The translations under genes were made by a program, and so were the position numbers. Shown here piece by piece: positions 2,348 through 27,028 of a DNA stretch of 64,000 nt. The DNA lies in assembly GCA_963921275.4 (NCBI GenBank), contig OZ001293.3, positions 3,872,001-3,936,000 of the forward strand, given 5' to 3'. The notes beneath the pieces were generated by a model. The model searched no databases, was not told the DNA's origin, and saw only the letters and a list, made by a program, of their open reading frames with translations. The first letter of the stretch is position 1, and each line of letters starts with the position of its first letter. This DNA comes from an uncultured Hormoscilla sp. (GTDB lineage: Bacteria > Cyanobacteriota > Cyanobacteriia > Cyanobacteriales > Desertifilaceae).

Positions 2348-2512
2348 ATGATAGAAACAGTCATGGAATTATTCAAGGATATGTCGGGATTTTTGAATGA
2401 GCGGAAGAAATATTGGCTAGTGCCACTGATAATAACTCTGATGTCAGTGGGTGGTCTCATAATTTTTGCTCAAGGATCCGCGATCGCGCCGTTTATCTAC
2501 ACTCTATTTTAA
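2348..2512 (+). CDS. 54-aa DUF5989/SxtK-like small membrane protein (not in the ORF track)
   Basis: Hand translation MIETVMELFKDMSGFLNERKKYWLVPLIITLMSVGGLIIFAQGSAIAPFIYTLF; the RKKYWLxP...APFIYTLF signature typically follows carbamoyltransferases. Confidence 0.9.
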   Translation: MIETVMELFKDMSGFLNERKKYWLVPLIITLMSVGGLIIFAQGSAIAPFIYTLF

Positions 2513-2519
2513 GAAAATC

Positions 2520-3717: not shown

Positions 3718-6700
3718 ATGAGCGACCTACAAAAACGTTTAGAAAAACTTTCTCCAGCTCAACGGGAACTGGTACTCAAAAAGCTGCAAGCACAAAAGCA
3801 AAACTTGAAGCCCCAAGCCAAAGTACCGGCGCGAGCGCCTGTTTCCAGAGACCAACCAATTCCGCTATCCTGGAATCAACAAAGACTGTGGTTTTTAGAG
3901 CAACTCGAAGGTAGCAGTTCTACATACAATATCCCGGCAGCAGTAGAGTTGGTGGGAGACCTCAACCTCACGGCCTTAGAGCAAGGGATCCAAGAAATTG
4001 TCCGACGCCATGAAGTCCTGCGGACAAATTTCACTTCTAAAGACGGACTCCCAGTGCAACAGATCGCCCCAGAGTTAAAGCTACACATAGCAGTTATCGA
4101 CCTCAAGTCAGATACCGAAGGGGATGAGGAAGTAAAGGAAAAAGCGATCGCCGAAGTGCAAAAGCCTTTCGATCTAGCAAAAGATCCCTTACTCCGGGTA
4201 ACTCTATTGCGGCGAGAGCCCTCCTCGCACGTCCTGTTGCTGACCATGCACCATATTATCTCTGATGGCTGGTCGATGGGGATATTAATTACAGAATTGT
4301 CACAGTTGTATCGGGCATTTTCGTTCCAAGCACCATCGCCCTTACCGGAACTACCATTTCAATATGCAGACTTTGCTGTATGGCAGCGGCAATGGTTGAG
4401 CGGAGAAACTTTAGAAACTCAACTAAATTACTGGAAAGAAACCCTCTCGGGGGCCCCGGAACTATTAGAATTACCGACAGACCTATCGCGTCCTCCCCTG
4501 CAGAAATTTCGCGGTAGCAGTATCAAATTTAACCTATCGGCAGAATTAACGAAAAAACTCCAAATTATAGCTGAAAAGTCCGAGGCCACCCTATTTATGA
4601 TTCTCTTCAGTGCTTTGGTGACTTTACTTTATCGCTATACCGCTCAAGAGGATATCTGTATCGGCACCCCGATCGCCAACCGGAACCGCGCCGAAACGGA
4701 ATCGCTAATTGGCTTTTTTATCAACACATTGGTATTGCGCGCGGACTTGACAGGAGATCCGACTTTTTCGGAGTTGATCGCGAGGGTGCGACAAAAGGCG
4801 ATCGATGCATACGATCGCCAGGACGTACCCTTCGAGCAAGTAGTAGAAGCTTTGCAACCCTCACGTTCTCTGAGCTACAGTCCCCTATTCCAGGTAATGT
4901 TTGCCTTGCAGAATGCACCGATGGGAGAATTAGAACTGCCCGGTCTGACTCTCAAACCCTTGGTCCAAGACAGCCTGACAGCCAAATTTGACCTGACAAT
5001 ATCCATGTGGGAAACAGACGCCGGACTGGCAGGATCCTGGGAATATAACAGTGACTTGTTCGATCGAGAGACGAGCGATCGCACCATCGGCCATTTCCAG
5101 ACATTGCTGGCCGGAATAGTAGCTAACCCCGACTGGCCTATAGGAGAATTACCTCTGCTGACTGCTGAGGAAAATCAACTATTCGAGTCGTGGAACAATA
5201 CTAAAACAAACTATCCGGCGGACAAATCTATTGGAGAACTATTTGAAAGGCAAGTCGAAAAGACCCCCGATGCCATAGCAGTAACCTACGGACGGGAACA
5301 ACTCACCTACAAACAGTTAAACTGCCGTGCTAACCAATTGGGACATTACCTGCAAGCTCGGGGTGTGGGCCCAGAAGTGCTAGTGGGTCTCTGCGTCGAT
5401 CGCTCCCTAGATGCGATCGTGGCCATGCTCGGCATTATCAAAGCTGGTGGCGCTTACGTGCCCATCGATCCAGACTATCCTCAAGACCGCATCGCCTATA
5501 TATTGTCAGATGCCCGAGTGCCAGTCTTGATTACTCAGTCTACGAGAAGAGCTAACTTGCCAGAACATCAGGCAGTTCTTGTCTGCTTAGATACAGACTG
5601 GCAAGAAATTAGCACCTGCAGCAGCGACAACATCAAAAGTGAAGTAAAACCCACTTCCTTAGCTTACCTGATCTATACATCTGGTTCTACAGGTAAGCCT
5701 AAAGGTGTAGCAGTGGTCCAGCAAGCCATCAGTCGTCTCGTGTTTGAGACCAACTACGTGCAGTTGCAGCCTACCGTGCCGGAAAAATCGGACTGCATGG
5801 CCCAAGCTTCTAATATCTCTTTTGATGCCGCCACTTTTGAAATTTGGGGAGCCTTGCTGCACGGAGCCAAACTCGTAGGCATTACTAAAGAAGTGCTGCT
5901 TTCACCTGAAGCATTGGCAAACCAGTTGCGCGAGCAAAAGATCGCGATTTTGTTTGTCACTACAGCCCTTTTCAATCAGTTGGTCAGTGTCGTGCCAGAT
6001 ATTTTCCAGCATCTGAGCACTCTCTTGTTCGGAGGTGAAGCGGTTGACCCATCCTGGGTAGCAACAGTCCTGGAAAAAGGACCGCCACGGCGACTGCTGC
6101 ACCTGTACGGACCAACGGAAAGCACGACATTCTCGACCTGGTATCTAGTAGAGTCAGTACCAGCAGGCGCAACCAACCTGCCCATTGGCAGTCCCATATC
6201 TAATACTACTATTTATGTCCTCGATCGCCATCTGCAACCCGTCCCCATTGGAGTCCCAGGAGAATTGTATATTGGCGGGGACGGTTTGGCTCGCGGTTAT
6301 CTGAACCGTCCGGAATTAACAGCCGCAAGATTTATCGATAACCCCTTTGGCAGTGGCCGTCTCTATAAAACAGGAGACTTGGTGCGTTACCTGCCAGATG
6401 GTAATATCGAATTTAAGGGTCGGATCGACAATCAAGTTAAGGTGCGCGGTTTCCGCATCGAACTGGGAGAAATTGAAGCCCTTTTGAGCAAGCACCCGCA
6501 AGTGCGAGAAGCAGTAGTCATAGTCCGGGAAGACCAACCGGGCAACAAGCGTCTGACAGGCTATGTACTCCCTTACTTAGAACCGCCAACTAGCAGTGCT
6601 TTGCGCGGCTTCCTGAAAGAAAGACTGCCCGAATATATGGTGCCAGCAGCTTTTGTGATTATGGAAGCCTTACCCTTAACCCCCAATGGCAAGGTGGAGC

Positions 6701-8463
6701 GCAAGGCGCTTCCAGCACCGGACGGACAAAGGGATGAAGACTCTGGTTTTGTCGCCCCCAGAACTCCTACAGAAGAAACATTGGCAGCTATCTGGAGCGA
6801 GATTTTGAGGGTTGAACGAGTAGGGGTTTGCGACAACTTCTTTGCCTTGGGTGGAGATTCGATCGTTAGCATTCAAATTATCGCTAGGGCCAATCAAGCG
6901 GGTTTGAAGTTGACACCCAAACAGCTATTCCAGTATCAGACGATCGCCGAATTGGCAGCAGTGGCCAGCACGACTGCCGCGAGACAAGCGACACAGGGTT
7001 TGGTGACGGGTTCGGCCCCCCTGACTCCCATTCAACATTGGTTTTTCCAGCAGGATTTACCCGCACCTCATCACTTCAATCAATCAGTCCTGTTGTCGGT
7101 GCCTCCAGACTTGCAGCCGCAGCTTTTAGAACAGGCTGTTCAAAAAATCTTAAGCCATCACGATGCCCTGCGATCGCGATTTATCGCCTCTGACACCGGT
7201 TGGCAGCAAGTTTATGCTACCCCAGACGAACAGATACCTTTCCAAGTCGCGGATCTGTCCGCTATTCCCCTCGCAGAACAGTCAGGACAGATGGAGGCGA
7301 TCGCGAATGAAATTCAAGCGAGTTTGCACCTGTCATCGGGACCGATAATGCGAGTGGTGCTGTTTCAGTTGGGGAGCGATCGGCCTGGTAGAATGCTAAT
7401 AGTCATCCATCACTTAGCAGTTGATGGCGTGTCCTGGCGCATTCTGCTAGAAGACTTGTCAACCGCTTACCAGCAGGAGGCCCTTCCGCCCAAAACTACC
7501 TCTTTCCAAGATTGGGCTAACCTGTTGACTGAATACGCGCGAACCGTTCCGGAAAAATCGGAAACAATCTCCAAAGAGTTAAACTACTGGCTAACCCAGT
7601 CGAGCACCAATATTGATTCGATCCCGGTGGACTATCCCGAGGGCAAGCAGGCCAACAGTTTTGGCTCCAGTCGCACGGTATCGGTATCATTAACGGAGGC
7701 AGAAACTCGGATCTTGCTGCAAGAAGTACCCAAGGCTTATAATACTCAGATTAATGACGTGCTGCTGACGGCATTAGTACTCAGCTTTGCCAAATGTACT
7801 GGCAGTAAATCATTGTTGGTGGACTTAGAAGGCCACGGCAGGGAAGAATTATTTGCCGATAGCGCCAGCGTAGACTTATCCCGGACTGTGGGTTGGTTTA
7901 CAACTTGTTTTCCGGTATCCTTGCAACTGGAGTCCGTTGACGATCTCTCTGATGCACTTAAATCGATCAAAGAGCAGCTGCGGAGCATACCTTCTAAAGG
8001 AATTGGTTATGGCCTCCTGCGCTATCTCAGTTCCGATGCGGCCACCCGCCAGACACTGGCAGATCAAACCCCATCTGAAATTAGTTTTAACTATTTAGGT
8101 CAATTTGCCGCTTCTAATGGGTTGCGATCGGGTACGATGGCATGGGGTATAGTGAGGGAAGCAACCGGCGAAAATCACAGTCCATTAGGTATTCGCGCTC
8201 ATCTACTGGATGTTAACGGATTAGTAGTTGCCGGACGGCTGCAAATGGATTATATTTACAGTGAAAACGTTCATCAACGAACAACTGTCGAACGCCTGGC
8301 TAAAACCTTTATAGAGACCTTAAAGTCCCTGAGCGACCACTGCACAGCACCGGAGGTGGGAGGCGATACCGCTTCAGACTTCTCGGCAGCAAGGTTAAAT
8401 CAACAACAGCTAGACAGTTTCCTGGCCAAAATCAAGAAACCCAAATCTGAGAAGAAAAAATAA
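3718..8463 (+). CDS. Single-module NRPS C(LCL)-A-PCP-E with C-terminal COM-donor tail; A code read by eye DAFFLGLTFK (Ile/aliphatic)
   Basis: HHIISDGWS; YTSGSTGKPKG; YKTGD; GGDSI PCP (typical before E domains); HHLAVDGVSW, EGHGRE, RTVGWFT (E domain); GGDTASDFSAARLNQQQLD tail. Confidence 0.95.
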   Translation: MSDLQKRLEKLSPAQRELVLKKLQAQKQNLKPQAKVPARAPVSRDQPIPLSWNQQRLWFLEQLEGSSSTYNIPAAVELVGDLNLTALEQGIQEIVRRHEVLRTNFTSKDGLPVQQIAPELKLHIAVIDLKSDTEGDEEVKEKAIAEVQKPFDLAKDPLLRVTLLRREPSSHVLLLTMHHIISDGWSMGILITELSQLYRAFSFQAPSPLPELPFQYADFAVWQRQWLSGETLETQLNYWKETLSGAPELLELPTDLSRPPLQKFRGSSIKFNLSAELTKKLQIIAEKSEATLFMILFSALVTLLYRYTAQEDICIGTPIANRNRAETESLIGFFINTLVLRADLTGDPTFSELIARVRQKAIDAYDRQDVPFEQVVEALQPSRSLSYSPLFQVMFALQNAPMGELELPGLTLKPLVQDSLTAKFDLTISMWETDAGLAGSWEYNSDLFDRETSDRTIGHFQTLLAGIVANPDWPIGELPLLTAEENQLFESWNNTKTNYPADKSIGELFERQVEKTPDAIAVTYGREQLTYKQLNCRANQLGHYLQARGVGPEVLVGLCVDRSLDAIVAMLGIIKAGGAYVPIDPDYPQDRIAYILSDARVPVLITQSTRRANLPEHQAVLVCLDTDWQEISTCSSDNIKSEVKPTSLAYLIYTSGSTGKPKGVAVVQQAISRLVFETNYVQLQPTVPEKSDCMAQASNISFDAATFEIWGALLHGAKLVGITKEVLLSPEALANQLREQKIAILFVTTALFNQLVSVVPDIFQHLSTLLFGGEAVDPSWVATVLEKGPPRRLLHLYGPTESTTFSTWYLVESVPAGATNLPIGSPISNTTIYVLDRHLQPVPIGVPGELYIGGDGLARGYLNRPELTAARFIDNPFGSGRLYKTGDLVRYLPDGNIEFKGRIDNQVKVRGFRIELGEIEALLSKHPQVREAVVIVREDQPGNKRLTGYVLPYLEPPTSSALRGFLKERLPEYMVPAAFVIMEALPLTPNGKVERKALPAPDGQRDEDSGFVAPRTPTEETLAAIWSEILRVERVGVCDNFFALGGDSIVSIQIIARANQAGLKLTPKQLFQYQTIAELAAVASTTAARQATQGLVTGSAPLTPIQHWFFQQDLPAPHHFNQSVLLSVPPDLQPQLLEQAVQKILSHHDALRSRFIASDTGWQQVYATPDEQIPFQVADLSAIPLAEQSGQMEAIANEIQASLHLSSGPIMRVVLFQLGSDRPGRMLIVIHHLAVDGVSWRILLEDLSTAYQQEALPPKTTSFQDWANLLTEYARTVPEKSETISKELNYWLTQSSTNIDSIPVDYPEGKQANSFGSSRTVSVSLTEAETRILLQEVPKAYNTQINDVLLTALVLSFAKCTGSKSLLVDLEGHGREELFADSASVDLSRTVGWFTTCFPVSLQLESVDDLSDALKSIKEQLRSIPSKGIGYGLLRYLSSDAATRQTLADQTPSEISFNYLGQFAASNGLRSGTMAWGIVREATGENHSPLGIRAHLLDVNGLVVAGRLQMDYIYSENVHQRTTVERLAKTFIETLKSLSDHCTAPEVGGDTASDFSAARLNQQQLDSFLAKIKKPKSEKKK

Positions 8464-8474
8464 CAGACAGGGAC

Positions 8475-8503
8475 TTGACAACGAGCTGAGAGATGGCTAT
8501 CAT
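8475..8503 (+). promoter_or_regulatory. Sigma70-type promoter TTGACA-N17-TATCAT; repeated at 8714 (TATCGT), 8953, 9192, 9431, 9670, 9909, 10148, 10387
   Basis: ttgaca acgagctgagagatggc tatcat: perfect -35, 17-nt spacer, 5/6 match at -10. Confidence 0.75.
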
Positions 8504-8516
8504 ATAGAAGTAGCTT

Positions 8517-10375
8517 GTGAATGAAGGGCGGCTGAACGGCTGGCTAAGACATGAGACCTTAAAGTACCCGATAGACCACTGCGCAGCACCGGAGGTGGGA
8601 GGCGATACCGCTTCAGACTTCTCGGCAGCAAGGTTAAATCAACAACAGCTAGACAGTTTCCTGGCCAAAATCAAGAAACCCAAATCTGAGAAGAAAAAAT
8701 GACAGACAGGGACTTGACAACGAGCTGAGAGATGGCTATCGTAGAGAAGTAGTTTGTGAATGAAGGGCGGCTGAACGGCTGGCTAAGACATGAGACCTTA
8801 AAGTACCCGATAGACCACTGCGCAGCACCGGAGGTGGGAGGCGATACCGCTTCAGACTTCTCGGCAGCAAGGTTAAATCAACAACAGCTAGACAGTTTCC
8901 TGGCCAAAATCAAGAAACCCAAATCTGAGAAGAAAAAATAACAGACAGGGACTTGACAACGAGCTGAGAGATGGCTATCATATAGAAGTAGCTTGTGAAT
9001 GAAGGGCGGCTGAACGGCTGGCTAAGACATGAGACCTTAAAGTACCCGATAGACCACTGCGCAGCACCGGAGGTGGGAGGCGATACCGCTTCAGACTTCT
9101 CGGCAGCAAGGTTAAATCAACAACAGCTAGACAGTTTCCTGGCCAAAATCAAGAAACCCAAATCTGAGAAGAAAAAATGACAGACAGGGACTTGACAACG
9201 AGCTGAGAGATGGCTATCATATAGAAGTAGCTTGTGAATGAAGGGCGGCTGAACGGCTGGCTAAGACATGAGACCTTAAAGTACCCGATAGACCACTGCG
9301 CAGCACCGGAGGTGGGAGGCGATACCGCTTCAGACTTCTCGGCAGCAAGGTTAAATCAACAACAGCTAGACAGTTTCCTGGCCAAAATCAAGAAACCCAA
9401 ATCTGAGAAGAAAAAATGACAGACAGGGACTTGACAACGAGCTGAGAGATGGCTATCATATAGAAGTAGCTTGTGAATGAAGGGCGGCTGAACGGCTGGC
9501 TAAGACATGAGACCTTAAAGTACCCGATAGACCACTGCGCAGCACCGGAGGTGGGAGGCGATACCGCTTCAGACTTCTCGGCAGCAAGGTTAAATCAACA
9601 ACAGCTAGACAGTTTCCTGGCCAAAATCAAGAAACCCAAATCTGAGAAGAAAAAATGACAGACAGGGACTTGACAACGAGCTGAGAGATGGCTATCATAT
9701 AGAAGTAGCTTGTGAATGAAGGGCGGCTGAACGGCTGGCTAAGACATGAGACCTTAAAGTACCCGATAGACCACTGCGCAGCACCGGAGGTGGGAGGCGA
9801 TACCGCTTCAGACTTCTCGGCAGCAAGGTTAAATCAACAACAGCTAGACAGTTTCCTGGCCAAAATCAAGAAACCCAAATCTGAGAAGAAAAAATGACAG
9901 ACAGGGACTTGACAACGAGCTGAGAGATGGCTATCATATAGAAGTAGCTTGTGAATGAAGGGCGGCTGAACGGCTGGCTAAGACATGAGACCTTAAAGTA
10001 CCCGATAGACCACTGCGCAGCACCGGAGGTGGGAGGCGATACCGCTTCAGACTTCTCGGCAGCAAGGTTAAATCAACAACAGCTAGACAGTTTCCTGGCC
10101 AAAATCAAGAAACCCAAATCTGAGAAGAAAAAATGACAGACAGGGACTTGACAACGAGCTGAGAGATGGCTATCATATAGAAGTAGCTTGTGAATGAAGG
10201 GCGGCTGAACGGCTGGCTAAGACATGAGACCTTAAAGTACCCGATAGACCACTGCGCAGCACCGGAGGTGGGAGGCGATACCGCTTCAGACTTCTCGGCA
10301 GCAAGGTTAAATCAACAACAGCTAGACAGTTTCCTGGCCAAAATCAAGAAACCCAAATCTGAGAAGAAAAAATAA
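8517..10375 (+). other. Eight identical 61-aa micro-ORFs ending in the NRPS COM-donor tail (translation uncertain)
   Basis: ORF track; GTG start ~14 nt after the -10 box with no SD; C-terminal ~40 aa match the 3718 NRPS terminus. Confidence 0.4.
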
Positions 10376-10819
10376 CAGACAGGGACTTGACAACGAGCTG
10401 AGAGATGGCTATCATATAGAAGTAGCTTGTGAATGAACGGCGGCTGAACGGCTGGCTAAGACATTCACCAGAGATATTAAAGTCCTCGATCGCTCAGAAA
10501 TGCGGTGACTGTGTCCATTGACAGGAAATGCACCTCATTTTTGCAAAAACACACTTGTTTGAAGGCTGGAACCCTTATTATATTCTTACCTGAGTTGCAG
10601 AAACCCGGTTTCTTATCTGTATGATTAGACAACTACTTTTGACCACACCCTCTTGATAATGACCTTAGAGGTTGCTATCATAGAGAAGTAAAGGCTGAGT
10701 AGGTGAGATGGGAGAAGTGATAACGGTGGGTGGCATAATAACCAGCCATGAATGATGGACAGAGAGACCCATAGAGTAACAGAATAAAGTTGAGAGAATT
10801 GAAAAAGGAGAGTACAATA

Positions 10820-13036
10820 ATGGACAATAAGTGGGAGCAATCGAATAAAGCATACAATATCGGTGACATAGTTGTATTTGAAGGTCGAAGATATAAGTGT
10901 ATCCAGGCTCATACAACTAACGGCGATTATAACTGGAATCCAGCAACTGCTCAAAGTTTGTGGGCACAGTATACGAGGCAATCAACTTCACAGGGGCAAT
11001 TAACTTCACAAGACATAGAAGAATTCAAGAAGAAATTCAACGAACGGAGGCAGTTCTATAAGATCCCAGGAGCAGCATTAGGGATTGTCCAAAATGGTCA
11101 AGCGATCGTGCAAGAAGGATTTGGTAAGCGAAATCTAGAATCTTCTTCAGCTGATGTGACAAAAGAAACGATTTTCGCCATAGGTTCAATGAGCAAGTCA
11201 TTGACAGCTTTGATGATCGGCACCCAAGTAGAGGCTGGTTTATATAATTGGGATACTCAAGTTAGTCAAATTAGTCCAGTGTACAAATTTAATCAATACA
11301 AGGAAATAACGGTAGCTGATTTATTGGGCATGCATTCCGGTCTAGAGGGGGCATTGAATTTTCAATATATCGATCTCGGGAAGAATCTGTTTGGTTATAA
11401 TGCCAGATACTGGAACGAACAAACGCCAATTTATCTGATAGAAAATCTCTCCTATTTGCCAGCTCCAAAAGGCAAAAAAGGGGAATATTTATACAATAAC
11501 GAATTATTTGCAAGCGGGGGTTATCTGACGCCGTTGAAAAACAAAAAGCCCACATCCCAATTATTGCAAGAATATAGGAAATTAATGCAGGATAAAGTAT
11601 TTAAGCCTATTGGTATGACAAGCACCAACATTACGGGGATGTTATCAAGTGTTAGCGATAACTATGCAATCAGCTACGGTCTGGACATGAGTGGGGGGGA
11701 AGCCAAAATTTTTAACAAAGGTGGGATCAGTATTAGCGATATTAATGGCGTGGCCCCAGCCGGTCAGGTGGTTACCAACGTTGAAGATATGAACCGTTAC
11801 CTGATTACCCTTTTGAAAGGCGGATGCAACCCCGAGGGCTCTCAAGTGATTAAGTCTGAAACTTTGCAGAAACTTTGGGATATACAAGGCAAGACCCTTA
11901 AAGACAATAGTAATAAGGAGGGGATTACGGGGAAGACAACCTACGGAATGGGTTGGTGGGTAGAAAAAATTTCCCGGAAATCTAATCCGAACGAAATCGT
12001 CACAGTCAAGCATCATGGCGGTTATTTACCATCTTGGTCCTGCATGCAGATGCTAGTTCCAGAGCAAAATGCTGGCATGGTGATTCTCACCAATAGTTGT
12101 TTTGGTCGGGAGTTTACGATGGAAATGAATCAAGAGCTGCTTAACTTGCTCTATAACTCAGATTTCAACAAAGACATTTTTATTGACAATCAAAAATATC
12201 ATGAAGGATTTCTGACAAAGTTAAAGGAGGCAATAGCCCAAAAAGTGTCAATAGCGGTACAAGACGAAAACAAAGTAGCAGAGGAAAAGAAAAAAGCTGA
12301 GAAGATTATAGGTAATTATGAAGGGGGGTGGAATTTAAATTATGATTCGGTAGATAAATGCTTGGTGCTGTATAAACAAGGCTGGATTGCTCGCTTGGCT
12401 CCTTCTAAAAATCCTGGCGATAAATATGTCTATTACATGGTAGCGTCGAACGATCACAGGGGAATGCACGTCACAAACAAAGAAGATATTTATGGAGCCG
12501 GTAAAATTTGGTTTACAAAAATTAAGGATATGAATAATATCGATCTGATGATGTATGGGGCAAAAGTTGGAGCAATCAAGAAATTGCCAGAGACGTCAAC
12601 AAAGAAGACAATATCTGAAATATTAGAATCGGAATATGACAAAGAGCGGTTTCAGCAGCTCAAAAATATATATTATCAAGAATGCGCAAAAAAACAATTG
12701 AGGGATATTATTGAGTTATTTTCAGATGACAAGAAATTACTGAATTTAAAACAGGAAAAAAAAGATGCGGTGAAAAAGAAGTTGGAGGAGGCGAAAAAAG
12801 AATTAGAGTCGGCCATTGGTAATATCACAGGGTCTTCACCAACAGAAGCAGCAGCAGCAGAGCAGCAGACGAACGAAAAAATCTCGATGATTATTTTAGA
12901 CGACGGTGACACCGAAATCACACCGGTGGAAGAAGTAACAATAATCTTAGATGATATTCCTGATAACAGCGAAAGTGACACCGAAATATCACTGGAAACA
13001 ACAATTGAGTTAATGAGAGAGATGCAAAGGGATTAA
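10820..13036 (+). CDS. Beta-lactamase/PBP-like serine hydrolase with N-terminal CBM5/12 (chitin-binding type) module and a coiled-coil/acidic C-terminal tail
   Basis: AAGGAG RBS; WEQSNKAYNIGDIVVFEGRRYKCIQAHT..WNP..SLW; GSMSK (SxxK), YNN (YxN), HHGG; no signal peptide. Confidence 0.88.
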   Translation: MDNKWEQSNKAYNIGDIVVFEGRRYKCIQAHTTNGDYNWNPATAQSLWAQYTRQSTSQGQLTSQDIEEFKKKFNERRQFYKIPGAALGIVQNGQAIVQEGFGKRNLESSSADVTKETIFAIGSMSKSLTALMIGTQVEAGLYNWDTQVSQISPVYKFNQYKEITVADLLGMHSGLEGALNFQYIDLGKNLFGYNARYWNEQTPIYLIENLSYLPAPKGKKGEYLYNNELFASGGYLTPLKNKKPTSQLLQEYRKLMQDKVFKPIGMTSTNITGMLSSVSDNYAISYGLDMSGGEAKIFNKGGISISDINGVAPAGQVVTNVEDMNRYLITLLKGGCNPEGSQVIKSETLQKLWDIQGKTLKDNSNKEGITGKTTYGMGWWVEKISRKSNPNEIVTVKHHGGYLPSWSCMQMLVPEQNAGMVILTNSCFGREFTMEMNQELLNLLYNSDFNKDIFIDNQKYHEGFLTKLKEAIAQKVSIAVQDENKVAEEKKKAEKIIGNYEGGWNLNYDSVDKCLVLYKQGWIARLAPSKNPGDKYVYYMVASNDHRGMHVTNKEDIYGAGKIWFTKIKDMNNIDLMMYGAKVGAIKKLPETSTKKTISEILESEYDKERFQQLKNIYYQECAKKQLRDIIELFSDDKKLLNLKQEKKDAVKKKLEEAKKELESAIGNITGSSPTEAAAAEQQTNEKISMIILDDGDTEITPVEEVTIILDDIPDNSESDTEISLETTIELMREMQRD

Positions 13037-13133
13037 AATTGGAAAAAGAGATCTTGTAGGACTGCCCAGATCCCATGTCAGTTGTCAATTGCTTTGTATA
13101 GACATTAATTATGGTCTCCTGCGCTATCTTAGT

Positions 13134-13247
13134 TAAGTAATAGGACAAAATTAATTGCATTAGCTTGCGGGAGCAGTTCCTGCGTTGCAAGGGTTTCCTG
13201 CGCTCCGGCACCCAGGCGATGTGTAATTAATTTTGTCTAACTACTTA
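13134..13247. mobile_element. MITE-like element with imperfect terminal inverted repeats
   Basis: taagtaataggacaaaattaattgca ... tgtaattaattttgtctaactactta; ends resemble the element at 18235-18365. Confidence 0.6.
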
Positions 13248-13302
13248 GCAGAAACTGAAGTCATGGCTCTTTGGAATGGTTTGTCTTTACTTTTTTAGTA
13301 TA

Positions 13303-14321
13303 ACCTAAGTTGCGACCTATTAAAAAAAATATGAATTACCCACTTAGACTTTACAGATATTTGGGATATTTCGTAGCTTTTGATACAAAATTATATTTTT
13401 TTTGTGCTAGACGGCGGGTTGGCTGTTTATAGGTTATAATGTACTAAAATAATAGTTAATTGCTGGGGGATGTAGATGATGGAAGATATGATTACAACAA
13501 TTTTTGTTCTTTGTGACGAGCTACTAAAAGCGTTAAATATAAAAGAAGATCCACAAGTAAAAATGAACAATGCCGAAGTGATGACAGTCGGATTAGTTGC
13601 TGCATATTTTTTCGGAGGACACCACGATCGCTCTTGTCAATTTATGGTCGAACACAAGTATATAAAAAATCTGTTAAGTAAAAGTAGGTTCAATCGTCGA
13701 TTACACAATATTGACGAACCAATTTGGATGTTTTTCTTCCAAGTTATAGCGTTATAGCTCAAACATTTAAAGAGCTCAATCCGGGTCAAGAATATATTCT
13801 TGATAGTTTCCGGTGCCAGTATGTGATAATATTAGGATTGATAGATGCCAAATTTATAACAAGGAAGAATATCGAGGGTATATTGCCAGTAAAAAACGTT
13901 ATTTTTATGGATTAAGAGTTCATATGTTGGTAAACAAAAATGGAAAGCCAATAGAATTTTATCTAGATCCTGGTAGTTATAATGATTTTAAAGTTTTACA
14001 ATCTTTTGGCTTTGACTTACCATCAAATTCAATAGTTTATGGAGATAAAGCTTATAATGATTATCAATTAGAGGATTTACTAAAAGAGTCGTCAAGTATA
14101 ATGTTAAAACCTTTGCGAAAAAAGAACTCAAAAAGAAAAGAATATTCTTGTTTTGAATATATACAAAAAGTAACAAGAAAACAAGTTGAAACCTGTTTTA
14201 GTCGAATCACCAATTTGTTTCCCAAGTCAATTCATGCTGTTACATCTAAGGGATTAGAGTTGAAAATAATTCTCTTTATCATAGCTTTTTGTATCCAATT
14301 TTTATAGGTCGCAACTTGAGT
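13303..14321 (+). mobile_element. IS982-family insertion sequence
   Basis: TIRs acctaagttgcgacctat / ataggtcgcaacttgagt; 7-bp target duplication TAGTATA (13296-13302, 14322-14328); AT-rich. Confidence 0.9.
13476..14307 (+). pseudogene. IS982 transposase with two frameshifts
   Basis: Pieces in three frames: LSKSRFNRR / YILDS / PVCDNIRI..GYIASKKRYFYGLRVH..YGDKAY..RKQVETCFS. Confidence 0.88.
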
Positions 14322-14384
14322 TAGTATAGAACCCGAAGAGCTTTTCTGTATGACTGGTGCTAAAAGCTACTTTCCAAACATCCT

Positions 14385-14823
14385 CTCAGAAGAAAAAATA
14401 CCAGACCCCGGACTTGACAACGAGGAATGGAGATGGCTATAGTAGAGAAGAAGCTTGTGAATGTTGGGCAGAGCAACGGCTGGCTAAGGCATTTACCTCC
14501 AGACATTAAAGTCCCCGATCGCTGCGCAGCACCGGAAGTGGGAGGATATCCTGCTTCAGACTTCTCCGCAGCAAGGTGAAATCAACAACAGCTAGACAGT
14601 TTCCGGCAAAAATCAAGAAAGCCAAATCTGAGAAGAAAAAATAACAGACAGGGACTTGACAACGAGCTGAGAGATGGCTATCGTAGAGAAGTAGCTTGTG
14701 AATGAAGGGCGGCTGAAGGGCTGGCTAAGACATTCACCAGAGACCGAGACGTCCCCGATCGCTGCACAGCACCGGAAGTGGGAGGCGATACCGCTTCAGA
14801 CTTCTCCGCAGCAAGGTGAAATC
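14385..14823 (+). repeat. About two diverged copies of the 239-bp unit, each retaining a promoter-like motif (14414 TTGACA-N18-TATAGT; 14656 TTGACA-N17-TATCGT)
   Basis: Shared blocks gacttgacaacgag, gcttgtgaatg, ggctggctaag, gcagcaccggaagtgggagg, gcttcagacttctc; a further remnant cagctagacagttt at ~15052. Confidence 0.9.
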
Positions 14824-14855
14824 TGACCAAAATTAAATAAATCAGAGGGGGAAAA

Positions 14856-15044
14856 ATGACAGAAGCAAATGGGAATTCACAACAAGCAGCAGAAAAGGAG
14901 GCTAAAGATGTTAGGAATAGGCGTCCTGCCGATCCCAGAATAATTTCGGTAAAGCGCTCAAATATTCCTAAAATCAGCGAACGGAAGATTAGAGTTTCAA
15001 AGGAAACAATGCGTTACTTAATTCGGAGCCTGCAATTGGATTAA
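14856..15044 (+). CDS. 62-aa basic protein whose C-terminal 25 aa match the hydrolase C-terminal tag
   Basis: GAGGGGG RBS; ends PKISERKIRVSKETMRYLIRSLQLD vs PKASERQIKVSKETTRYLLRNLQLD in 15096-16892, with several synonymous differences. Confidence 0.7.
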   Translation: MTEANGNSQQAAEKEAKDVRNRRPADPRIISVKRSNIPKISERKIRVSKETMRYLIRSLQLD

Positions 15045-15095
15045 ACCATAGCAGCTAGACAGTTTTCAGGGAAAAACAAGAGAGAGGTCACAATC

Positions 15096-16892
15096 ATGAC
15101 AGCAGCAAAAAAAACTTTATCATCACAACAAATCGAAGATTTCAAGAAGAAATTCAACGAACGGAGGCAGTTCTATCAGATCCCAGGAGCAGCATTAGGG
15201 ATTGTGCAAGATGGTCAGGTTACTGTGTCTGAAGGGTTTGGGGTGCGAGACTTGCAGACACAGACTCCCATGACAGCAAAAACGATTTTCAACATAGGTT
15301 CAATGAGTAAGTCATTGACAGCTTTGATGATCGGCACCCAAGTGGATGAGGGTTTATATGCCTGGGATACTCCAGTGAGTGAAATTAGCTCGCAGTACCG
15401 CTTTCCCTCTGTACTCGCTTACGAACCAACGGTGACAGATTTAATGGGAATGGCTTCTGGTATAGATGGTGCGCTCAACCCTTATGCCATAATTCCCGAT
15501 CCCAACGATCCTAGTACTGCGATTATAGGTGCTAATGGAACACTTTGGAATGACCAAACGGCAATCTATACTATCAAAAACATCCAATTTTTGCCATGCG
15601 ATCCAGCCGATAAAGGGAAACATATCTACAACAATGAGTTGTATGCAAGCGCTAGTTATCTGACGCCGTTGAAAGAAAACAGGCCAACATCCCAATTGCT
15701 GCAAGCTTATAAGCAATTAATGCACGAGAAAGTATTTGATACCATTGGCATGGCAGATACCGCAATGTCTGGTACTTTGTCAAGTGTTAGCGACGACTAT
15801 GCCATCAGCTACGGCCTAGACATGAGTGACGGACAAGCAAAAACTTTTGATAAAGGTGCAGTCAGTATTAACTATATCAATGGTGTGGGCCCAGCCGGTC
15901 AGGTGGTTTCCAACGTTGAAGATATGAACCGTTACCTGATCACCATTTTGAATAACGGAGTCAACCCCGATGGCGTCGCAGTGATTAATGCTGACACTCT
16001 ACAGCAACTTTGGAATATAGAAGGCAAGGAAACTAAAACAAATCGTTATGATGCGGGGATTACGGGGACGATAACCTACGGAATGGGTTGGTGGGTAGAA
16101 GACATTCCCCGGAAATCTAATCCGGACGAAATAGTCACAGTCCGGCATCATGGCGGTTTCTTACCATCTTGGGCCTGCATGCAGATGCTAGTTCCAGAGC
16201 AAAATGTGGGCATGGTGATTCTCACCAATGGTTCTTTTGGTCGGGAGTTTACGATGGAAATGAATCAAGAGTTGCTTAACTTGCTCTATGACTCAGATCT
16301 AGACAACTTCATTGACAATGAAGCCCTTTATACTAAGTTTGTGTCGGACTTAGAAACGACAATGCCAGAGAAAGTGTCTTCATATACGGTCGTTTACGAA
16401 GACGTAGAGATGCTCCTCGGTAATTATGAAGGGCTATGGACTTTAGAGGTGGATGGAGATAATCGCTTGGTCTTGTTTAAGAACGGCTGGATTTATCACT
16501 TGTATCCTTCTCGAGAAGATCCCTTATTTATCTATTACATAGGAGCATCGAACAATCACAGGGGCATGAGGGTAAGAGAATCAAGCGATCCCGACATAGA
16601 TCCGCTTGAAGGAGCAAAAATTTGGTTTGTTGAAGACGAGCAAGAGGTCATTAACATGATTGGACCTCAAATTGGAGGGGTCAAGAAATTGCCTAATCTA
16701 TTAGAATCCGATGAGTTAAATAGATTAATCCTCAGTATCTTAGGTGATAAATCCTTTCCCCCCGCTCCCCCCGCCCCCGCTCCCCCCGCTCCCCCCGCTC
16801 CCCGTATGAGAGCTCCTAAAGCCAGCGAACGTCAGATCAAAGTCTCGAAGGAAACGACACGTTACTTACTGCGGAACCTGCAATTGGATTAA
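15096..16892 (+). CDS. Beta-lactamase/PBP-like serine hydrolase with Pro-rich linker and C-terminal tag
   Basis: GSMSK, YNN, HHGG; GNYEG C-terminal beta domain; PPAPPAPAPPAPPAP linker; no signal peptide. Confidence 0.9.
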   Translation: MTAAKKTLSSQQIEDFKKKFNERRQFYQIPGAALGIVQDGQVTVSEGFGVRDLQTQTPMTAKTIFNIGSMSKSLTALMIGTQVDEGLYAWDTPVSEISSQYRFPSVLAYEPTVTDLMGMASGIDGALNPYAIIPDPNDPSTAIIGANGTLWNDQTAIYTIKNIQFLPCDPADKGKHIYNNELYASASYLTPLKENRPTSQLLQAYKQLMHEKVFDTIGMADTAMSGTLSSVSDDYAISYGLDMSDGQAKTFDKGAVSINYINGVGPAGQVVSNVEDMNRYLITILNNGVNPDGVAVINADTLQQLWNIEGKETKTNRYDAGITGTITYGMGWWVEDIPRKSNPDEIVTVRHHGGFLPSWACMQMLVPEQNVGMVILTNGSFGREFTMEMNQELLNLLYDSDLDNFIDNEALYTKFVSDLETTMPEKVSSYTVVYEDVEMLLGNYEGLWTLEVDGDNRLVLFKNGWIYHLYPSREDPLFIYYIGASNNHRGMRVRESSDPDIDPLEGAKIWFVEDEQEVINMIGPQIGGVKKLPNLLESDELNRLILSILGDKSFPPAPPAPAPPAPPAPRMRAPKASERQIKVSKETTRYLLRNLQLD

Positions 16893-17010
16893 AACTGGAT
16901 TTGCATCAAAGACTATACTCTCTAGCTTTGTTAAGTAAGTAGTCAAAAGGGATGGAATGAAACCAGGTTTCTTGTCCAAACCAGGTTTCTAGTACAGCCT
17001 TGCTGTAGTA

Positions 17011-18195
17011 ATGATACCATTAGAAGATCAGAAGATGCTTTTCATTATACCGACATTGACGATTGGTTTAGTTGTTGTTTCAGCAATAGCGCTGCTATAT
17101 CTTTCTTACCCTTACTTATATATCTCACTATTTTGGTTACTCTATTTGATTTTCTTAACTTTAATCAGTAACAAGTCTTGGAACAAAGCCATATGGTTTA
17201 ATTTAAGTTTTATTATTTTTATATTTGGCTTAATTGAGATTTATTCTACTTTGTCTCTGAACGGCTGGATAGAAGGCTTGAAATTTGAAGGTAGCTATAC
17301 ACGAGATTATTTTACTGCTGACGATATCCTTGGTTATGCACCCAATAAAGCAATAGCCGTAAATTCAAAACTATCTATAAGAGGAAAGCCAATTTATGAT
17401 GTTACTTATACAATAAACGATCGAGGATTGCGGGTTTCTCCACCAGGCGATCGGGATCGATGTATATTATTTTTTGGCGACTCTTTCACCTTTGGGCAGG
17501 GGCTAGAGGACAATGAGACTTTGCCTTATCTTGTCGGTGAATTGTCAAAAGCCCAAGTATATAATTTTGGTTTTCACGGCTATGGGCCACATCAAATGCT
17601 TGCCGCTATAGAACAAGGGATGTTAGACAAAATTGTCGATTGTCAGCCAAGTTTAATTATCTATGAAGCATTTATAGGTGATATTTACAGATCGGCTGGT
17701 CGTGCCCCTTGGGATAGACATGGCCCCAAATATGCGATCGCGGCAAATGGAGGTGTAAAATATCAGGGTCACTTTGACGACAACTTCACTAAGAGTAAAG
17801 CAATAGCATTAATCAAGGAACAAGTAGAAAAGTCTTATTTTTACAAAAAGTTTTTTAAGTATAAAGCTTTAATTGATGAAGAGGATATAAAATTATTTAT
17901 CGAAATTATTAATGCTTCCTATAATCAATTAAGAGAAAAATACCCCAATGCTGATTTTCAGGTATTGTTTTGGGATAATTATCCAGAAAACCAGTTATAT
18001 CAACAAGTGATAGCAGGTTTAAGAGCAAAAAGTTTTCAGCTAGATTTAATTAGTCAAATACTACCAAACTTTTGGGATAATCAATCAAGATACCAGATCC
18101 CTGACGAACAACACCCTAATCCCCTGGCCAATCAATATATTGCAGAATACGTGGTCTCCGAAATTATGAATATGTCAGTAGTCAGTAGTCAGTAG
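17011..18195 (+). CDS. Membrane-bound SGNH/GDSL hydrolase family protein
   Basis: N-terminal TM helices; FFGDSFTFGQG, NFGFHGYG, DEQHPN. Confidence 0.85.
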   Translation: MIPLEDQKMLFIIPTLTIGLVVVSAIALLYLSYPYLYISLFWLLYLIFLTLISNKSWNKAIWFNLSFIIFIFGLIEIYSTLSLNGWIEGLKFEGSYTRDYFTADDILGYAPNKAIAVNSKLSIRGKPIYDVTYTINDRGLRVSPPGDRDRCILFFGDSFTFGQGLEDNETLPYLVGELSKAQVYNFGFHGYGPHQMLAAIEQGMLDKIVDCQPSLIIYEAFIGDIYRSAGRAPWDRHGPKYAIAANGGVKYQGHFDDNFTKSKAIALIKEQVEKSYFYKKFFKYKALIDEEDIKLFIEIINASYNQLREKYPNADFQVLFWDNYPENQLYQQVIAGLRAKSFQLDLISQILPNFWDNQSRYQIPDEQHPNPLANQYIAEYVVSEIMNMSVVSSQ

Positions 18196-19016: not shown

Positions 19017-22000
19017 ATGAATGATATTGAAGACATTTACGAATTAAGCCCTATGCAGCAGGGGATTCTGTTCCACAGTCTTTACGAACAGAGTGATGGC
19101 ATGTATTTCCATATGCTAGCTTGGACTTTGGAAGGCCCGTTGAATGTAGATGCTTTCAAGCAAGCGTGGCATCAAGTTGTGGCTAGACACGCGGTGTTGC
19201 GGACTTCTTTCCACTGGCAAGAGTTGGAAAAACCCCTACAGGTGGTTCATTCTACGATCGAGTTGCCTTGGCTAAATATATCCTGGCAGGGAAAGACTGA
19301 GTTAGAAGAGAAGCGATCTGCCTTTATAAAGGCAGATCGCAGCCAAGGTTTTGAACTGGATGAAGCCCCCTTGATGCGCTGTGCTTTGATAGAGTTAGGC
19401 TCCGATCGCTACGAATTTGTCTGGAGTCTGCATCATCTGTTGCTTGATGGTTGGAGTATGGCGATCGTCCTGAAGGAAGTGTTTGAGTTATATGAGGCGA
19501 TCGCAGTGGGGAAAGATTTATATTTACCGCCCCCGCTCCCCTTCCGAGAGTATATCACTTGGTTGCAAGAGCAAGACTTGTCCCAGGCGAAAGCATACTG
19601 GCAACAAACCCTCCAGGGCTTTAAGATGCCTACTGTCATGCCTGGCATTCAGGGGCCAAAAAATCATCAAACCCATTACCAGGAGCAACATTTTAATTTA
19701 GCCGCAAGTACTACCAAGGCGTTACAGTCTTTAGCTCGCGCAAATGGTTTGACATTAAGTACAATTTTACAGGGTGCCTGGGCCCTACTGCTAAGTTGCT
19801 ACAGTGGGGAGTCAGATGTTGTCTTTGGAGTTACGGTTTCCGGTCGCCCGCCTTCTTTATCGAGAGTAGAATCGATGGTGGGGGTGTCGATCAATACATT
19901 ACCAATGCGCGTGCAACTGCCTGATTTGTCGTTTCCGACAGCAGGGGAACTATGGCCTTGGTTGAGAAAGTTGCAGGCCCAGCAGGTAGAACAGCAACAA
20001 TACTCCTTTATGCCTCTGGTGGAAATTCAAACTCTGAGTGAAGTACCCCAAGGTATGTTTGAGAGTATTGTGATTTTTCAGAACTATCCGATAGATCCTG
20101 TCAGCACCAGGCAGGGAGACTTGCAAATAGGTCAAATTAAAGGGACTGGACATACTAATTATCCCCTGACAGTCATGGCCAGTCCAGGTGCGGAATTGTC
20201 AGTACGGATAAAGTATGATGGCACTCGCTTTCACCTCAAGACCATAAGCTCGATCGCCAGAGACTTACAATTGGTATTAGAGGCGATCGCGACTAATCGA
20301 GAGCCCCAAATTGCTTCATTAATCACCAAGTTGCATAAATTGGGCAAACCGCTTAAACTGCAACAGCTGGAAGTGGCGTTGATGTCTGCTCCTGAAGTAG
20401 AAGATTGTTACATATTAGAACGAGAAAACACCATAGTTGCTTATGTAGTATTATCATCTGCATTGACGGAGCCAGAAAAACTCAATAATCATTTGCAAGC
20501 TCAACTCTATACTTACCAAGCACCAGATGTATATGTAAAAATATCGGCTTTACCCCTGACAGATACAGGAGAAATTGACGAAGTGGCCCTGGGGCGAATA
20601 CCGGTCTTGGATGAGGAGTTGGCACAACGCTGGGAAAAACAACTGCAAGAACTGCCAGAAATTGAGCGCGTAGCGGTGGTCGTTCGACCTGAAACTAAGA
20701 GTTTACCACCCTTACATTTATCTGACTTACTACCCCAAGTAGGGTGGGCACCGCCCACCAACGGCACCGCCCACCAACAGGCGGTTTCCGGTGATGACAT
20801 CACGCCAGTCCCAGAAAGCCAAGTGGCGATCGCCAAGGCCCGATCGCGGGAAATGGCCATCAGTCACGGAGGACCGCTAGAATATCGACAAGATTGGCCG
20901 CGTACCCTTGCAGAACTATTGCCAGTGGCGGCCCTCAAAAGCAGTCAGAAGATCCTATACATACAGCGGGATGGTACGGAGTTATGGCAATCCTATGGGG
21001 ATTTACTTCAAAAGGCCCAAAGCATAAATGGGGGTTTGAAAGCACTAGGTCTCCAGCCCCAAGATAAGGTAATACTGCAACTTAAACATCCCCAAGATTT
21101 TATTCCGGCATTTTGGGGCTGCATTCTGGGAGGGTTTGTACCGGTACCCCTGGGTGTAGCCCCTACTTATAGCCAAGTCAATAATGCGGTGCAGAAATTG
21201 CAGAATGCCTGGCAGATGCTAGAAAAGCCGTTCGTCTTGGCAAGCGCAGAACTGGTGCAGGCGATCGCTTCTTTGTCAGAACTTCTGGGTTTAGAGAATT
21301 TGCAAGTAGAAAGCTGCGATCGCCTGGGAGAGTACGACCCAGAACCGAATTATCATCTGAGTCAGCCAGAGGATTTAGCAATATTACTTCTAACGTCTGG
21401 AAGTACGGGCATGCCAAAGGGAGTTATGCTGAGTCATCGGAATATCTTAAGTAGCGTTGCGGCCACCTCGGAAGTCAGCCAATTGACCCGAGAAGATATA
21501 TCACTCAATTGGCTTCCCCTAGACCATCCCGGGCCTCTGATTCGCTGCTGTATCCGCTGCGTATTCCTCGCTTGCCAACAAATACACGCACCCACAGATC
21601 TGGTTTTACAAGATCCGCTAATCTGGTTTGATTGGTTGGAACGCTATGGGGTGACGAGTACTTGGAGTCCTAATTTTGCCTTTACCCTCGTTAACGATCA
21701 AGCCGCTGAAATTAAACAGCGGAGGTGGAATTTGTCTGCTGTCAGGTCTTTGTTGAATACTGCCGAACCCATTGTGCCCCAAACTGCACAAAGATTTTGG
21801 GAATTATTTGCCGGGCATCAGTTAGCTGCCCGGGCCATGCATTCTTCTTGGGGCATGGCAGAAACTGCTTCCGGGGTGACTTTTTCCGATCAGTTTTTGC
21901 AGGTCAACCCGACCCAGACTTCTTTTGCCGAATTAGGACTTCCCATCCCCGGGGTTTCTTTGCGCATCGTTAATGGGGAAAATGAAGTGATAGAATGCGG

Positions 22001-26942: not shown

Positions 26943-27028
26943 TAATCACTCATGATGGGCATCTCTTGACTTGATGTCTATCTTCGAGTGACAGCATGAA
27001 GTTGAGGGATTTGCATAAGGAGAGTAGA

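Follow-up and report, generated by a model that had tools for sequence, protein, structure and literature searches.

Two hydrolases and a 62-amino-acid (aa) mini-protein encoded in a cyanobacterial nonribosomal peptide synthetase (NRPS) gene cluster end in the same 25-aa tag, which is a real, conserved and undescribed peptide module. The stretch of DNA that carries them, here called the window, comprises 64,000 nucleotides from an uncultured Hormoscilla sp. (contig OZ001293.3, positions 3,872,001 to 3,936,000) and holds the NRPS cluster, with the hydrolase and mini-protein genes between two synthetase genes, NRPS1 and NRPS2. Instead of a general signal for sorting or docking, the tag seems to be a gate built into the enzyme. 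We propose that this tethered strand-helix tail gates the cleft of its own enzyme and that the mini-protein is a free copy of it, a reading that we hold at slightly less than an even chance. All evidence, functional evidence included, is computational. The interpretation offered in a preliminary description, made from the letters of the window alone, is partly supported.

The tag is confined to one hydrolase family and its mini-proteins

The three tags of the window are all encoded on the forward strand, each directly followed by a stop codon. The acidic version (PDNSESDTEISLETTIELMREMQRD; 12959..13036 with the stop) ends the open reading frame (ORF) 10790-13036. Two basic versions end the 62-aa ORF 14856-15044 (PKISERKIRVSKETMRYLIRSLQLD; 14967..15044) and the ORF 15096-16892 (PKASERQIKVSKETTRYLLRNLQLD; 16815..16892). 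These C-termini read exactly as first described. The two basic tags are identical at 19 of 25 residues and 64 of 78 bases; five of their codon differences are synonymous and six are non-synonymous. Elsewhere in the window, a search for tag DNA returned only chance near-matches.

A leave-out hidden Markov model (HMM), trained only on 13 basic tags from outside the window, recovers the tag of the short enzyme (E 4.5e-14) and that of the mini-ORF (E 2.8e-13) from among 1932 window ORFs. It ranks the acidic tag third, end to end at the exact C-terminus, with a weak match (E 0.47). Because of this weakness, the homology of the acidic tag rests on intermediate long-form tags found elsewhere, on its identical position and on its predicted strand-helix pattern.

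The motif recurs in other genomes and is not peculiar to the window. We collected 27 relatives of the 598-aa short hydrolase (E ≤ 1e-20) from Microcoleus, Tolypothrix, an uncultured cyanobacterium and other sources. A full tag ends 20 of the 27, and one more is cut at a contig end; the six without it are more distant relatives, at 31-43% identity or less. Six loci (L001-L006) came out of a scan of 185,579 species genomes, and together with the window they are the basis of all work at the DNA level. The tag consensus is PKAxDxxIxISxETTRYLIxNMQLD-stop, and its P, S, Q and final D are invariant in 15 of 15 DNA-derived tags. Every tag-bearing ORF in the window and the six loci (15 of 15) is a hydrolase or a mini-ORF. 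Searching the tag profile exhaustively against 1,835,955,588 (1.84 billion) representative proteins at E ≤ 0.001 gave six matches: one hydrolase, two C-terminal fragments of hydrolases and three mini-proteins. Therefore, contrary to what had initially been supposed, the tag is not a general docking, targeting or secretion signal.

As expected from that same description, the tag corresponds to nothing in the family databases. Pfam at E up to 5 gave only noise for the mini-protein and the tagged C-termini (AbrB_C E 0.23, PRIMA1 E 0.28), and no NCBIfam family matches the mini-protein. A word-indexed search with the 62-aa protein among proteins of 34-109 aa found itself as the sole match. The corresponding search among longer proteins gave nothing at E ≤ 10, not even the window's own 598-aa protein, since with 5.8 billion sequences a match of 25 aa is too short to be significant. 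Both searches carry little information. In the literature, subscription-only papers being outside its scope, we found no description of a tail, an autoinhibitory element or a docking element on PBP-type (penicillin-binding protein) or S12 enzymes.

The tethers that carry the tags are of low complexity and vary widely in length and sequence between orthologues. That of the short hydrolase spans residues 533-573 (16692..16814, forward strand) and contains a Pro/Ala repeat, with a tandem repeat at 16757-16804. The tagged genes always lie between or beside NRPS genes.

The tagged enzymes are S12 hydrolases with a lipocalin-like domain

The tagged enzymes are a subfamily of cytoplasmic-looking S12 hydrolases that combine the PBP / class-C beta-lactamase fold with a lipocalin-like domain. 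The long enzyme (10790..13036, forward strand) has 748 aa from TTG 10790, or 738 aa from ATG 10820 (database protein P0021). It consists of an N-terminal CBM5/12 module, the S12/beta-lactamase-fold domain, the lipocalin-like domain, a helical linker of ~120 residues predicted at low confidence and the acidic tag (PF00144 E 9.2e-37, PF02839 E 1.3e-13). The short enzyme (15096..16892, forward strand; 598 aa; PF00144 E 3.7e-45) has the S12/beta-lactamase-fold and lipocalin-like domains followed by a helix, the Pro/Ala linker and the basic tag. Both PF00144 scores exceed the gathering score. The two enzymes are 57% identical and run past the end (...KLV) of their untagged paralogues in the window. 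These paralogues, a split gene and three identical 525-aa copies, are the four other hydrolases that had been reported to lack the tag, and they do lack it. More widely, forms of ~600 aa carry basic tags and forms of ~725-750 aa carry neutral to acidic ones, and the two are adjacent on the same contigs. The CBM5/12 module occurs on the window's long form and on the homologue P0003.

The catalytic apparatus is intact. We take SxxK, YxN and H/K-x-G to be the catalytic motifs that define S12 / class-C beta-lactamase-fold hydrolases; the corresponding residues S69, K72, Y178, N180, H352, G353 and G354 are invariant in 25 of 25 aligned sequences. By sequence inspection, no N-terminal hydrophobic signal is visible in the tagged enzymes.

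AlphaFold2 models the short form with a mean predicted local distance difference test (pLDDT) score of 84.3 and a predicted template modelling score (pTM) of 0.87, placing the beta-rich domain at ~440-532; for the long form mean pLDDT is 76.0. The top Foldseek matches of the short form are Pab87 (2qmi, E 1.1e-25), IS11 esterase, Lip3 (9sn1), SurE (6ksu) and D-aminopeptidase, all of them PBP-fold enzymes with an extra beta-rich domain. We also considered whether the tagged enzymes are class C beta-lactamases of the clinical, resistance-conferring kind. Their bla_class_C NCBIfam scores (56 and 62 bits) fall far below the curated cut-off of 415, which makes them superfamily relatives only.

The tag is predicted to dock on the lipocalin-like domain

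In both monomer models the tag forms an island of confidence behind a low-confidence linker, positioned in cis. For the short form, pLDDT is 47-55 over linker residues 551-570, then 79 (571-580), 66 (581-590) and 53 (591-598) over the tag, with a helix at 585-594. For the long form, residues 601-720 score 31-61, with 31-43 directly ahead of the tag, and the tag blocks 84, 76 and 60. The low linker scores agree with the flexible tether of the preliminary description. In both models the second tag residue forms a beta-bridge and ETT...N is helical.

A model of the complex between the short hydrolase core (residues 1-556) and the mini-protein supports binding of the mini-protein's tag to that core, as a prediction and not a demonstration. 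The median interaction prediction score from aligned errors (ipSAE) of three runs is 0.73 (0.83, 0.67 and 0.73), and the best of three controls scores 0.00. The runs have at least 66% of their contacts in common, and the pLDDT of the mini-protein is 52 or higher. The mark used for such models was reached by 116 of 157 solved complexes and by 2 of 215 mismatched pairs, a calibration that is only rough here, where custom alignments were used.

The predicted interface on the mini-protein is residues 32-62, and the predicted receptor is an acidic beta-hairpin of the short hydrolase, EGAKIWFVEDEQEVINMIGPQ (codons 505-525; 16608..16670, forward strand). The lowest-error contacts pair hairpin residues 510-514, 519-525 and 506 with mini-protein residues 37-55: P38 and K39 with 511-514, I45 with 510 and 522, and the helix 47-55 with 506, 524 and 525. 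The interface list also includes G68, S69, Y178, N180, H352-P357, the 140-148 loop and lipocalin residues 475-525. By elimination from this contact list, we infer that the last residues of the tag (QLD) may reach the cleft at S69, Y178 and H352.

Charge covariation is consistent with this predicted contact. Hairpin charge (columns 508-522) and tag charge (first 11 residues) are inversely related, with a Spearman rho of -0.85 (n = 18, uncorrected for phylogeny). The hairpin carries -2 to -5 and the N-terminal half of the tag +2 to +4 in 12 of 13 short forms; the corresponding values in five long forms and P0018 are -2 to +1 and 0 to -4. In a tree of the catalytic cores, charge changed on three or more separate branches, namely those of P0014, which lies within the short clade, of P0016/P0017, and of the window's long form together with P0019. 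Thus, the split into basic and acidic versions seen at the outset is a real trend. The accompanying idea that acidic tags pair with basic tags is set aside, because the charges match each tag's own hairpin and because the complex model puts the tag on the hydrolase.

Several residues are specific to the tagged enzymes: R489, K508 and G523 (18 of 18 each), W510 and Q525 (16 of 18 each), P524 (15 of 18) and D319 (14 of 18). All of these positions differ in three untagged close paralogues.

The mini-protein resembles a hydrolase gene without its catalytic part

The 62-aa mini-ORF (14856..15044, forward strand) starts with ATG behind a purine-rich stretch and encodes a variable N-terminal part followed by the basic tag. 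Directly upstream lie two diverged copies of a 239-bp unit made of the NRPS1 3' end and a promoter-like site (14384..14823, forward strand), with blastn identities of 84-85% to an array of this unit at 8290-10490. Their promoter-like sites are TTGACA-18-TATAGT at 14414 and TTGACA-17-TATCGT at 14656. At the DNA level, the mini-ORF and the 598-aa gene are similar only over the tag (14966-15045 versus 16814-16893; 82.5%, 80 bases, E 6e-16).

The free mini-protein that the preliminary description had pointed out is found in other genomes as well. Locus L001 holds a clear orthologue of 59 aa (9911-10087; P0031), locus L006 holds two mini-ORFs, A and B (12034-12210 and 16090-16332), and the exhaustive search adds a fifth instance, P0030. 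In the window and four loci the interval can be followed as far as NRPS2, L002 and L005 being cut by contig ends; mini-ORFs are present in three of these five intervals (window, L001, L006) and absent from two (L003, L004). The frame is open in all five instances (window, L001, L006 A and B, P0030), four of which start with ATG. The window and L001 copies are collinear apart from one in-frame three-codon indel, with a proportion of synonymous differences (pS) of 0.45 in the N-terminal part. Their ratio of non-synonymous to synonymous change (dN/dS) is suggestive of purifying selection, a comparison with little power.

The L006 mini-ORFs start MTDNQ.TPS.SAES and the neighbouring hydrolase starts MTDSTTTPSKSALS. 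With this hydrolase-like start and the tag, the mini-ORFs thus look like hydrolase genes minus everything between approximately the first 15 codons and the tether. Hydrolase and mini-ORF units are each preceded by a remnant of the NRPS1 3' end, "cagctagacagttt" (QLDSF in NRPS1); therefore, the duplicating unit spans the NRPS1 tail to the end of the tag. The mini-protein has a net charge of +3, which matches the acidic hairpin of the neighbouring short enzyme.

Sequence has also moved between tags. The middle of the tag and 40 downstream bases of the Microcoleus long form in L005 (4461-4550) are identical to L006 16243-16373, which belongs to the Tolypothrix mini-ORF B; they do not match the long form of Tolypothrix in this way. 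It follows that recombination has swapped tags between genes. Outside the tag, pS between L002 and L006 is as low as 0.17, a hint that the cluster was recently transferred between orders.

The tag is unusually conserved at synonymous sites

Tag pS is 0.10-0.33 versus 0.17-0.65 in the rest of the gene, and lower in 9 of 10 orthologue pairs; tag dN/dS is ~0.6-2.4. With so few synonymous changes in the tag, the synonymous differences between the window's copies do not show selection on the peptide alone, which is how they had first been read. Among five short-form orthologues, codons are identical in 9 of 10 residue-invariant tag columns versus 126 of 283 elsewhere (Fisher p 0.0067). The same test is not significant for the long forms (4 of 6 versus 90 of 206, p 0.41) or for both together (3 of 4 versus 53 of 167, p 0.10), and third-position invariance as high as that of the tag occurs in 17 of 561 25-codon segments. 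The string TGCAATTGGATTAA is identical in 10 of 10 aligned tags, and in several the conservation continues for ~14 bases past the stop codon.

We found no ready account of this at the nucleotide level. RNAalifold predicts zero consensus pairs for 10 tag regions with 40 downstream bases, a scan for promoters and terminators found nothing at the tags, and Rfam at the gathering threshold returns for the window only two group II intron matches, far from the tags. The synonymous conservation is thus unexplained by RNA structure, terminator or Rfam family, and a nucleotide-level role may therefore coexist with a peptide role.

The tail may gate the enzyme that carries it

We propose that the tag docks back on the enzyme that carries it, or on a like subunit. 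Its N-terminal half (P-K/x...I-x-[IV]-S) would add a strand to the lipocalin hairpin 505-525 through a charge-matched contact, its helix (ETTRYLxxN) would pack against residues 506, 524 and 525, and the invariant end Q-L-D-COOH would continue towards the catalytic cleft (S69/K72, Y178/N180, H352-G354). Placed there, the tail could regulate entry to the active site as an intrasteric gate, either a pseudo-substrate plug or a specificity lid. D-residues are where S12 enzymes typically act, and NRPS1 has an epimerization (E) domain, so a ribosomal, all-L tail could sit uncut in the cleft until the real D-residue substrate displaces it. The 62-aa mini-protein would be the same tail minus the enzyme, derived from a hydrolase gene by loss of the catalytic part, and might, as a free peptide, inhibit the short hydrolase in trans or compete with it.

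Several findings favor this proposal: the confidence islands in cis, the complex model, the charge covariation and tagged-specific residues, the intact catalytic motifs, the presence of the full tag in 20 of the 27 homologues and the confinement of the tag to hydrolases and mini-proteins in the exhaustive search. The D-residue logic draws on NRPS1, whose last domain has six of six E-domain core motifs (by regular-expression search), giving the order condensation-adenylation-thiolation-epimerization (C-A-T-E). It also draws on related enzymes. PBP-type thioesterases require a C-terminal D-residue according to the available text of PMC11735501, and Lip3 and Lip7 cleave D-L bonds according to that of PMC12903863.

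Other points weigh against the proposal. Everything about binding is model output: the mini-protein reaches a pLDDT of only 53-56 in the complex model, and the contact of QLD with S69, Y178 and H352 comes from elimination in the contact list, not from coordinates. Among tagged proteins, the lipocalin interface is less conserved (0.72 over 25 positions) than non-interface positions (0.80 over 70). The charge correlation has its exceptions, P0003 (hairpin -3, tag 0) and the L001 mini-protein (N-terminal half of the tag -1, by hand count), and most of the short forms behind this phylogenetically uncorrected value are close relatives. The D-specificity of the tagged enzymes is assumed from their family. 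The synonymous sites of the tag are more conserved than a purely peptide-level function predicts. For the mini-protein, the L006 mini-ORF at 12034-12210 starts with ATT where the others have ATG, dN/dS against the L001 orthologue is only ~0.5 over 59 codons, and the role as a trans-inhibitor is weakened by the fact that free peptides are poor competitors of tethered ones. An extended version of the proposal, which combines latent hydrolases plugged by an all-L tail at a D-specific site, free-tail inhibitors arising by deletion of the enzyme and tail DNA that doubles as a nucleotide signal for a tandemly duplicating gene unit, appears doubtful to us.

Alternatively, the tail could dock in trans on the lipocalin hairpin of an adjacent subunit and help to form or hold together homo-oligomers, or it could be a constitutive piece that completes the substrate pocket and regulates nothing, with the mini-protein capping sites or being a relic. 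The complex model binds the tag in trans to a core without its own tag, the best fold match Pab87 is octameric in the available text of PMC2651629, the long forms have 100-190 predicted helical tether residues that could form a coiled coil, and a charge match to the own hairpin suits homotypic binding in trans as well as in cis. We nevertheless consider this arrangement unlikely: the monomer models already position the tag confidently in cis, and tethers of low complexity and variable length would be unusual for a structural element. The fate of the mini-ORF is partly separate, since it could be what remains, without function, of a duplicated hydrolase gene after loss of the catalytic part, whichever explanation of the tag is best. 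This is a substantial possibility, if short of probable. The mini-ORFs retain hydrolase-like first residues and the tag, the region is rich in tandem duplications and holds an insertion sequence (IS) element, one L006 copy has the ATT start, selection is measured on few codons, and L003 and L004 have no mini-ORF; yet all five frames are open with ATG in four, the window and L001 copies remain open and collinear at pS 0.45, and a promoter-like site and a purine-rich stretch precede the window copy.

The remaining alternatives give the tag a partner, or a role, outside the hydrolase. Its genes are constantly beside NRPS genes, NRPS subunits dock through short tethered C-terminal peptides (short linear motif/beta-hairpin docking domains and communication-mediating (COM) helices; available text of PMC9113145), and self-docking would leave room for a second partner, so the tag could recruit the hydrolases to a pathway protein such as an NRPS domain, with the mini-protein as adaptor or competitor. 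However, tag charge follows the hydrolase's own hairpin. The beta-hairpin docking domain TubC_N (PF18563) is absent from window proteins at E ≤ 0.001 and from NRPS1 residues 1-61 at E ≤ 5, NRPS2 begins directly with a condensation domain (from residue 5), and in L003 TubC_N sits on a different protein that has its own upstream partner. The COM-like tail of NRPS1, considered as a source or mimic of the tag, gives no BLASTP alignment with it at E ≤ 100. Recruitment therefore strikes us as quite unlikely. Still less probable is that conservation mainly concerns a nucleotide element in which these genes end (a signal in RNA or DNA, or the recombination junction of the duplicating unit), with the peptide similarity largely a by-product. 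The low tag pS in 9 of 10 pairs, the codon identity of the short forms, the shared TGCAATTGGATTAA and the NRPS1 remnant before each unit would fit it, but the tags show no consensus RNA structure or terminator-like site, the codon test is non-significant in long and combined forms with 17 of 561 segments as extreme, frame, stop position and mini-ORF start codons are maintained, and charge covariation and structure models favor peptide function. Least credible of all is that the tag directs export or targeting from the C-terminus, type I secretion being one example. This would explain a chitin-binding-type module (the CBM5/12 of the window long form and P0003) on an enzyme without a visible hydrophobic N-terminal signal, and the C-terminal location fits, but the tag occurs on no other protein type among the 1.84 billion representatives, the scanned ORFs of the window and loci include MFS (major facilitator superfamily) transporters only and no ABC exporter or membrane-fusion protein, and the models put the tag on the enzyme itself.

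Relation to known systems

In enzymes with intrasteric pseudo-substrate tails, a tethered peptide occupies the region of the enzyme's own active site, and free copies can inhibit in trans. The tail described here differs in being C-terminal, in its invariant QLD-COOH end and in its predicted strand-addition anchor on a second domain. Our literature search, which did not extend to subscription-only papers, found no described example of an intrasteric tail on S12/PBP-fold enzymes. Tethered-peptide regulation is a known principle; what we rate as new is its proposed application to a PBP-fold hydrolase.

Pab87 (2qmi), an S12 peptidase of the CubicO type, is both the best fold match and the best sequence match in the PDB (E 2.1e-12). 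It has the same succession of a PBP-fold and a lipocalin-like domain, aligned over 543 columns, and one source labels the homologues "CubicO group peptidase". In contrast, identity is 19% and Pab87, at 447 residues, is shorter than the tagged enzymes. A cubic octamer around an internal chamber is a further mark of the CubicO/Pab87 type. SurE (6ksu; Foldseek rank 13, E 1.0e-17) is likewise a stand-alone enzyme with PBP-fold and lipocalin-like domains in an NRPS cluster. Here as there, an upstream synthetase ends in an epimerization domain, which provides the D-residue needed by enzymes of this kind (available text of PMC11735501). SurE is only 14% identical, and the available text of PMC11735501 mentions no tail for PBP-type thioesterases. 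Furthermore, SurE-type enzymes off-load in trans from assembly lines that end in T-E and have no thioesterase of their own, whereas here NRPS1 ends in T-E but its COM-like tail fits the NRPS2 N-terminus, and NRPS2 has a thioesterase (TE) domain. An off-loading cyclase is not required, because NRPS1 passes to NRPS2 via COM-like ends and NRPS2 has its own thioesterase.

Lip3 and Lip7 (9sn1, fold rank 4), two of the D-stereospecific S12 peptidases, are beta-lactamase-fold serine peptidases with a beta-rich C-terminal domain that shapes the substrate cavity, and they act on D-residue bonds of nonribosomal peptides (available text of PMC12903863). The same text gives them Sec signal peptides and a Ser-Lys-Lys-Tyr arrangement and describes no tethered tail, whereas the window enzymes have no visible signal and a His (H352) in the third motif. 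NRPS docking elements resemble the tag as short tethered C-terminal peptides with charge-coded specificity in an NRPS cluster (available text of PMC9113145). The difference is that the tag is predicted to dock on a hairpin of the enzyme's own lipocalin-like domain instead of an N-terminal docking domain.

Genomic context

The cluster opens with the last part of an A-T protein (1-453). Next come a carbamoyltransferase (434-2323), a protein of 413 aa that matches no Pfam family above threshold (2466-3707) and NRPS1 (3718-8463; by Pfam C-A-T and a second condensation-family domain). The carbamoyltransferase ends in ...KKQFELD-stop, superficially like the ...QLD of the tag, with no tag-HMM match at E ≤ 10. 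After the tagged genes come a membrane GDSL-like protein (17011-18195) and NRPS2 (19017-25229; C-A-KR-T-TE, where KR is ketoreductase), whose terminal thioesterase domain matches PF00975 at E 6.3e-32. A COM donor motif has the form of a TPSDF...LD..L tail at the end of an E domain. The NRPS1 C-terminus is ...TASDFSAARLNQQQLDSFLAKIKKPKSEKKK and the NRPS2 N-terminus is MNDIEDIYELSPMQQGILFH, which we take to resemble a COM-type junction.

NRPS2 is followed by the four untagged hydrolase paralogues, a glycosyltransferase, an LPG-synthase-like membrane protein and an MFS transporter. The first paralogue is split into two ORFs of 192 and 314 aa (25407-25985 and 25998-26942), halves of the beta-lactamase fold, and is probably a broken gene. 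The other three lie in three tandem 2483-bp copies (26699-34149), 99.9% identical, with one 525-aa hydrolase each. The first two copies are then followed by a 159-aa ORF whose start is that of the full 397-aa ORF 33817-35010 behind the third copy.

Repeats are also present before the mini-ORF. Nine tandem copies of the 239-bp unit, 97-99% identical, occupy 8290-10490. The unit comprises the last ~170 bases of the NRPS1 gene (the COM-like tail), a stop codon and a near-consensus promoter-like site (TTGACA-17-TATCAT in eight copies, TATCGT in one). Later copies each form a 61-aa GTG-started ORF that ends in the NRPS1 tail. The array may reflect either true amplification or an error of assembly. 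Between the long hydrolase and the repeat copies upstream of the mini-ORF, an IS-type DDE transposase has inserted at 13476-14307; it is encoded by two ORFs (93 and 164 aa; PF13612, PF01609). Further away, a segment of ~1.5 kb is duplicated at 45513-47179 and 48202-50413 (96-99% identical) among response-regulator and histidine-kinase genes; each copy holds one group II intron domain match (46758-46835 and 49992-50069; 46.6 bits).

The palindrome AAACCNGGTTT occurs five times in the window (10601, 16960, 16978, 53847 and 53865) versus 0.07 expected, and in the loci at L002 11846, L004 11827, L005 4599 and L006 11926, 12240, 15589 and 16381. Its copies in the clusters are intergenic, before or after hydrolase genes, and follow tags in four loci. 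This palindrome may be an operator site.

In the Microcoleus locus L003 (3168-6435), the genes upstream of a short tagged hydrolase and NRPS2 are different: they encode an ER-ACP protein whose C-terminus is ...DREEIEI, a C-domain protein with the TubC_N docking domain and an MFS transporter. NRPS1, the long form and the mini-ORF are absent within the 10 kb fetched on each side.

Implications

PBP-fold hydrolases of NRPS clusters, which include off-loading cyclases, D-peptidases and pro-drug peptidases, are wanted biocatalysts and set the timing of product activity. Should the models be wrong, what is left is a C-terminal motif specific to one family, of modest interest. If the proposal is true, the gating tail would be a previously undescribed layer of control for the PBP fold. 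Such a tail would have to be removed or respected when these enzymes are expressed, and it would provide a ready-made peptide ligand for the cleft. The mini-protein would then be a rare natural inhibitor made from an enzyme's own tail.

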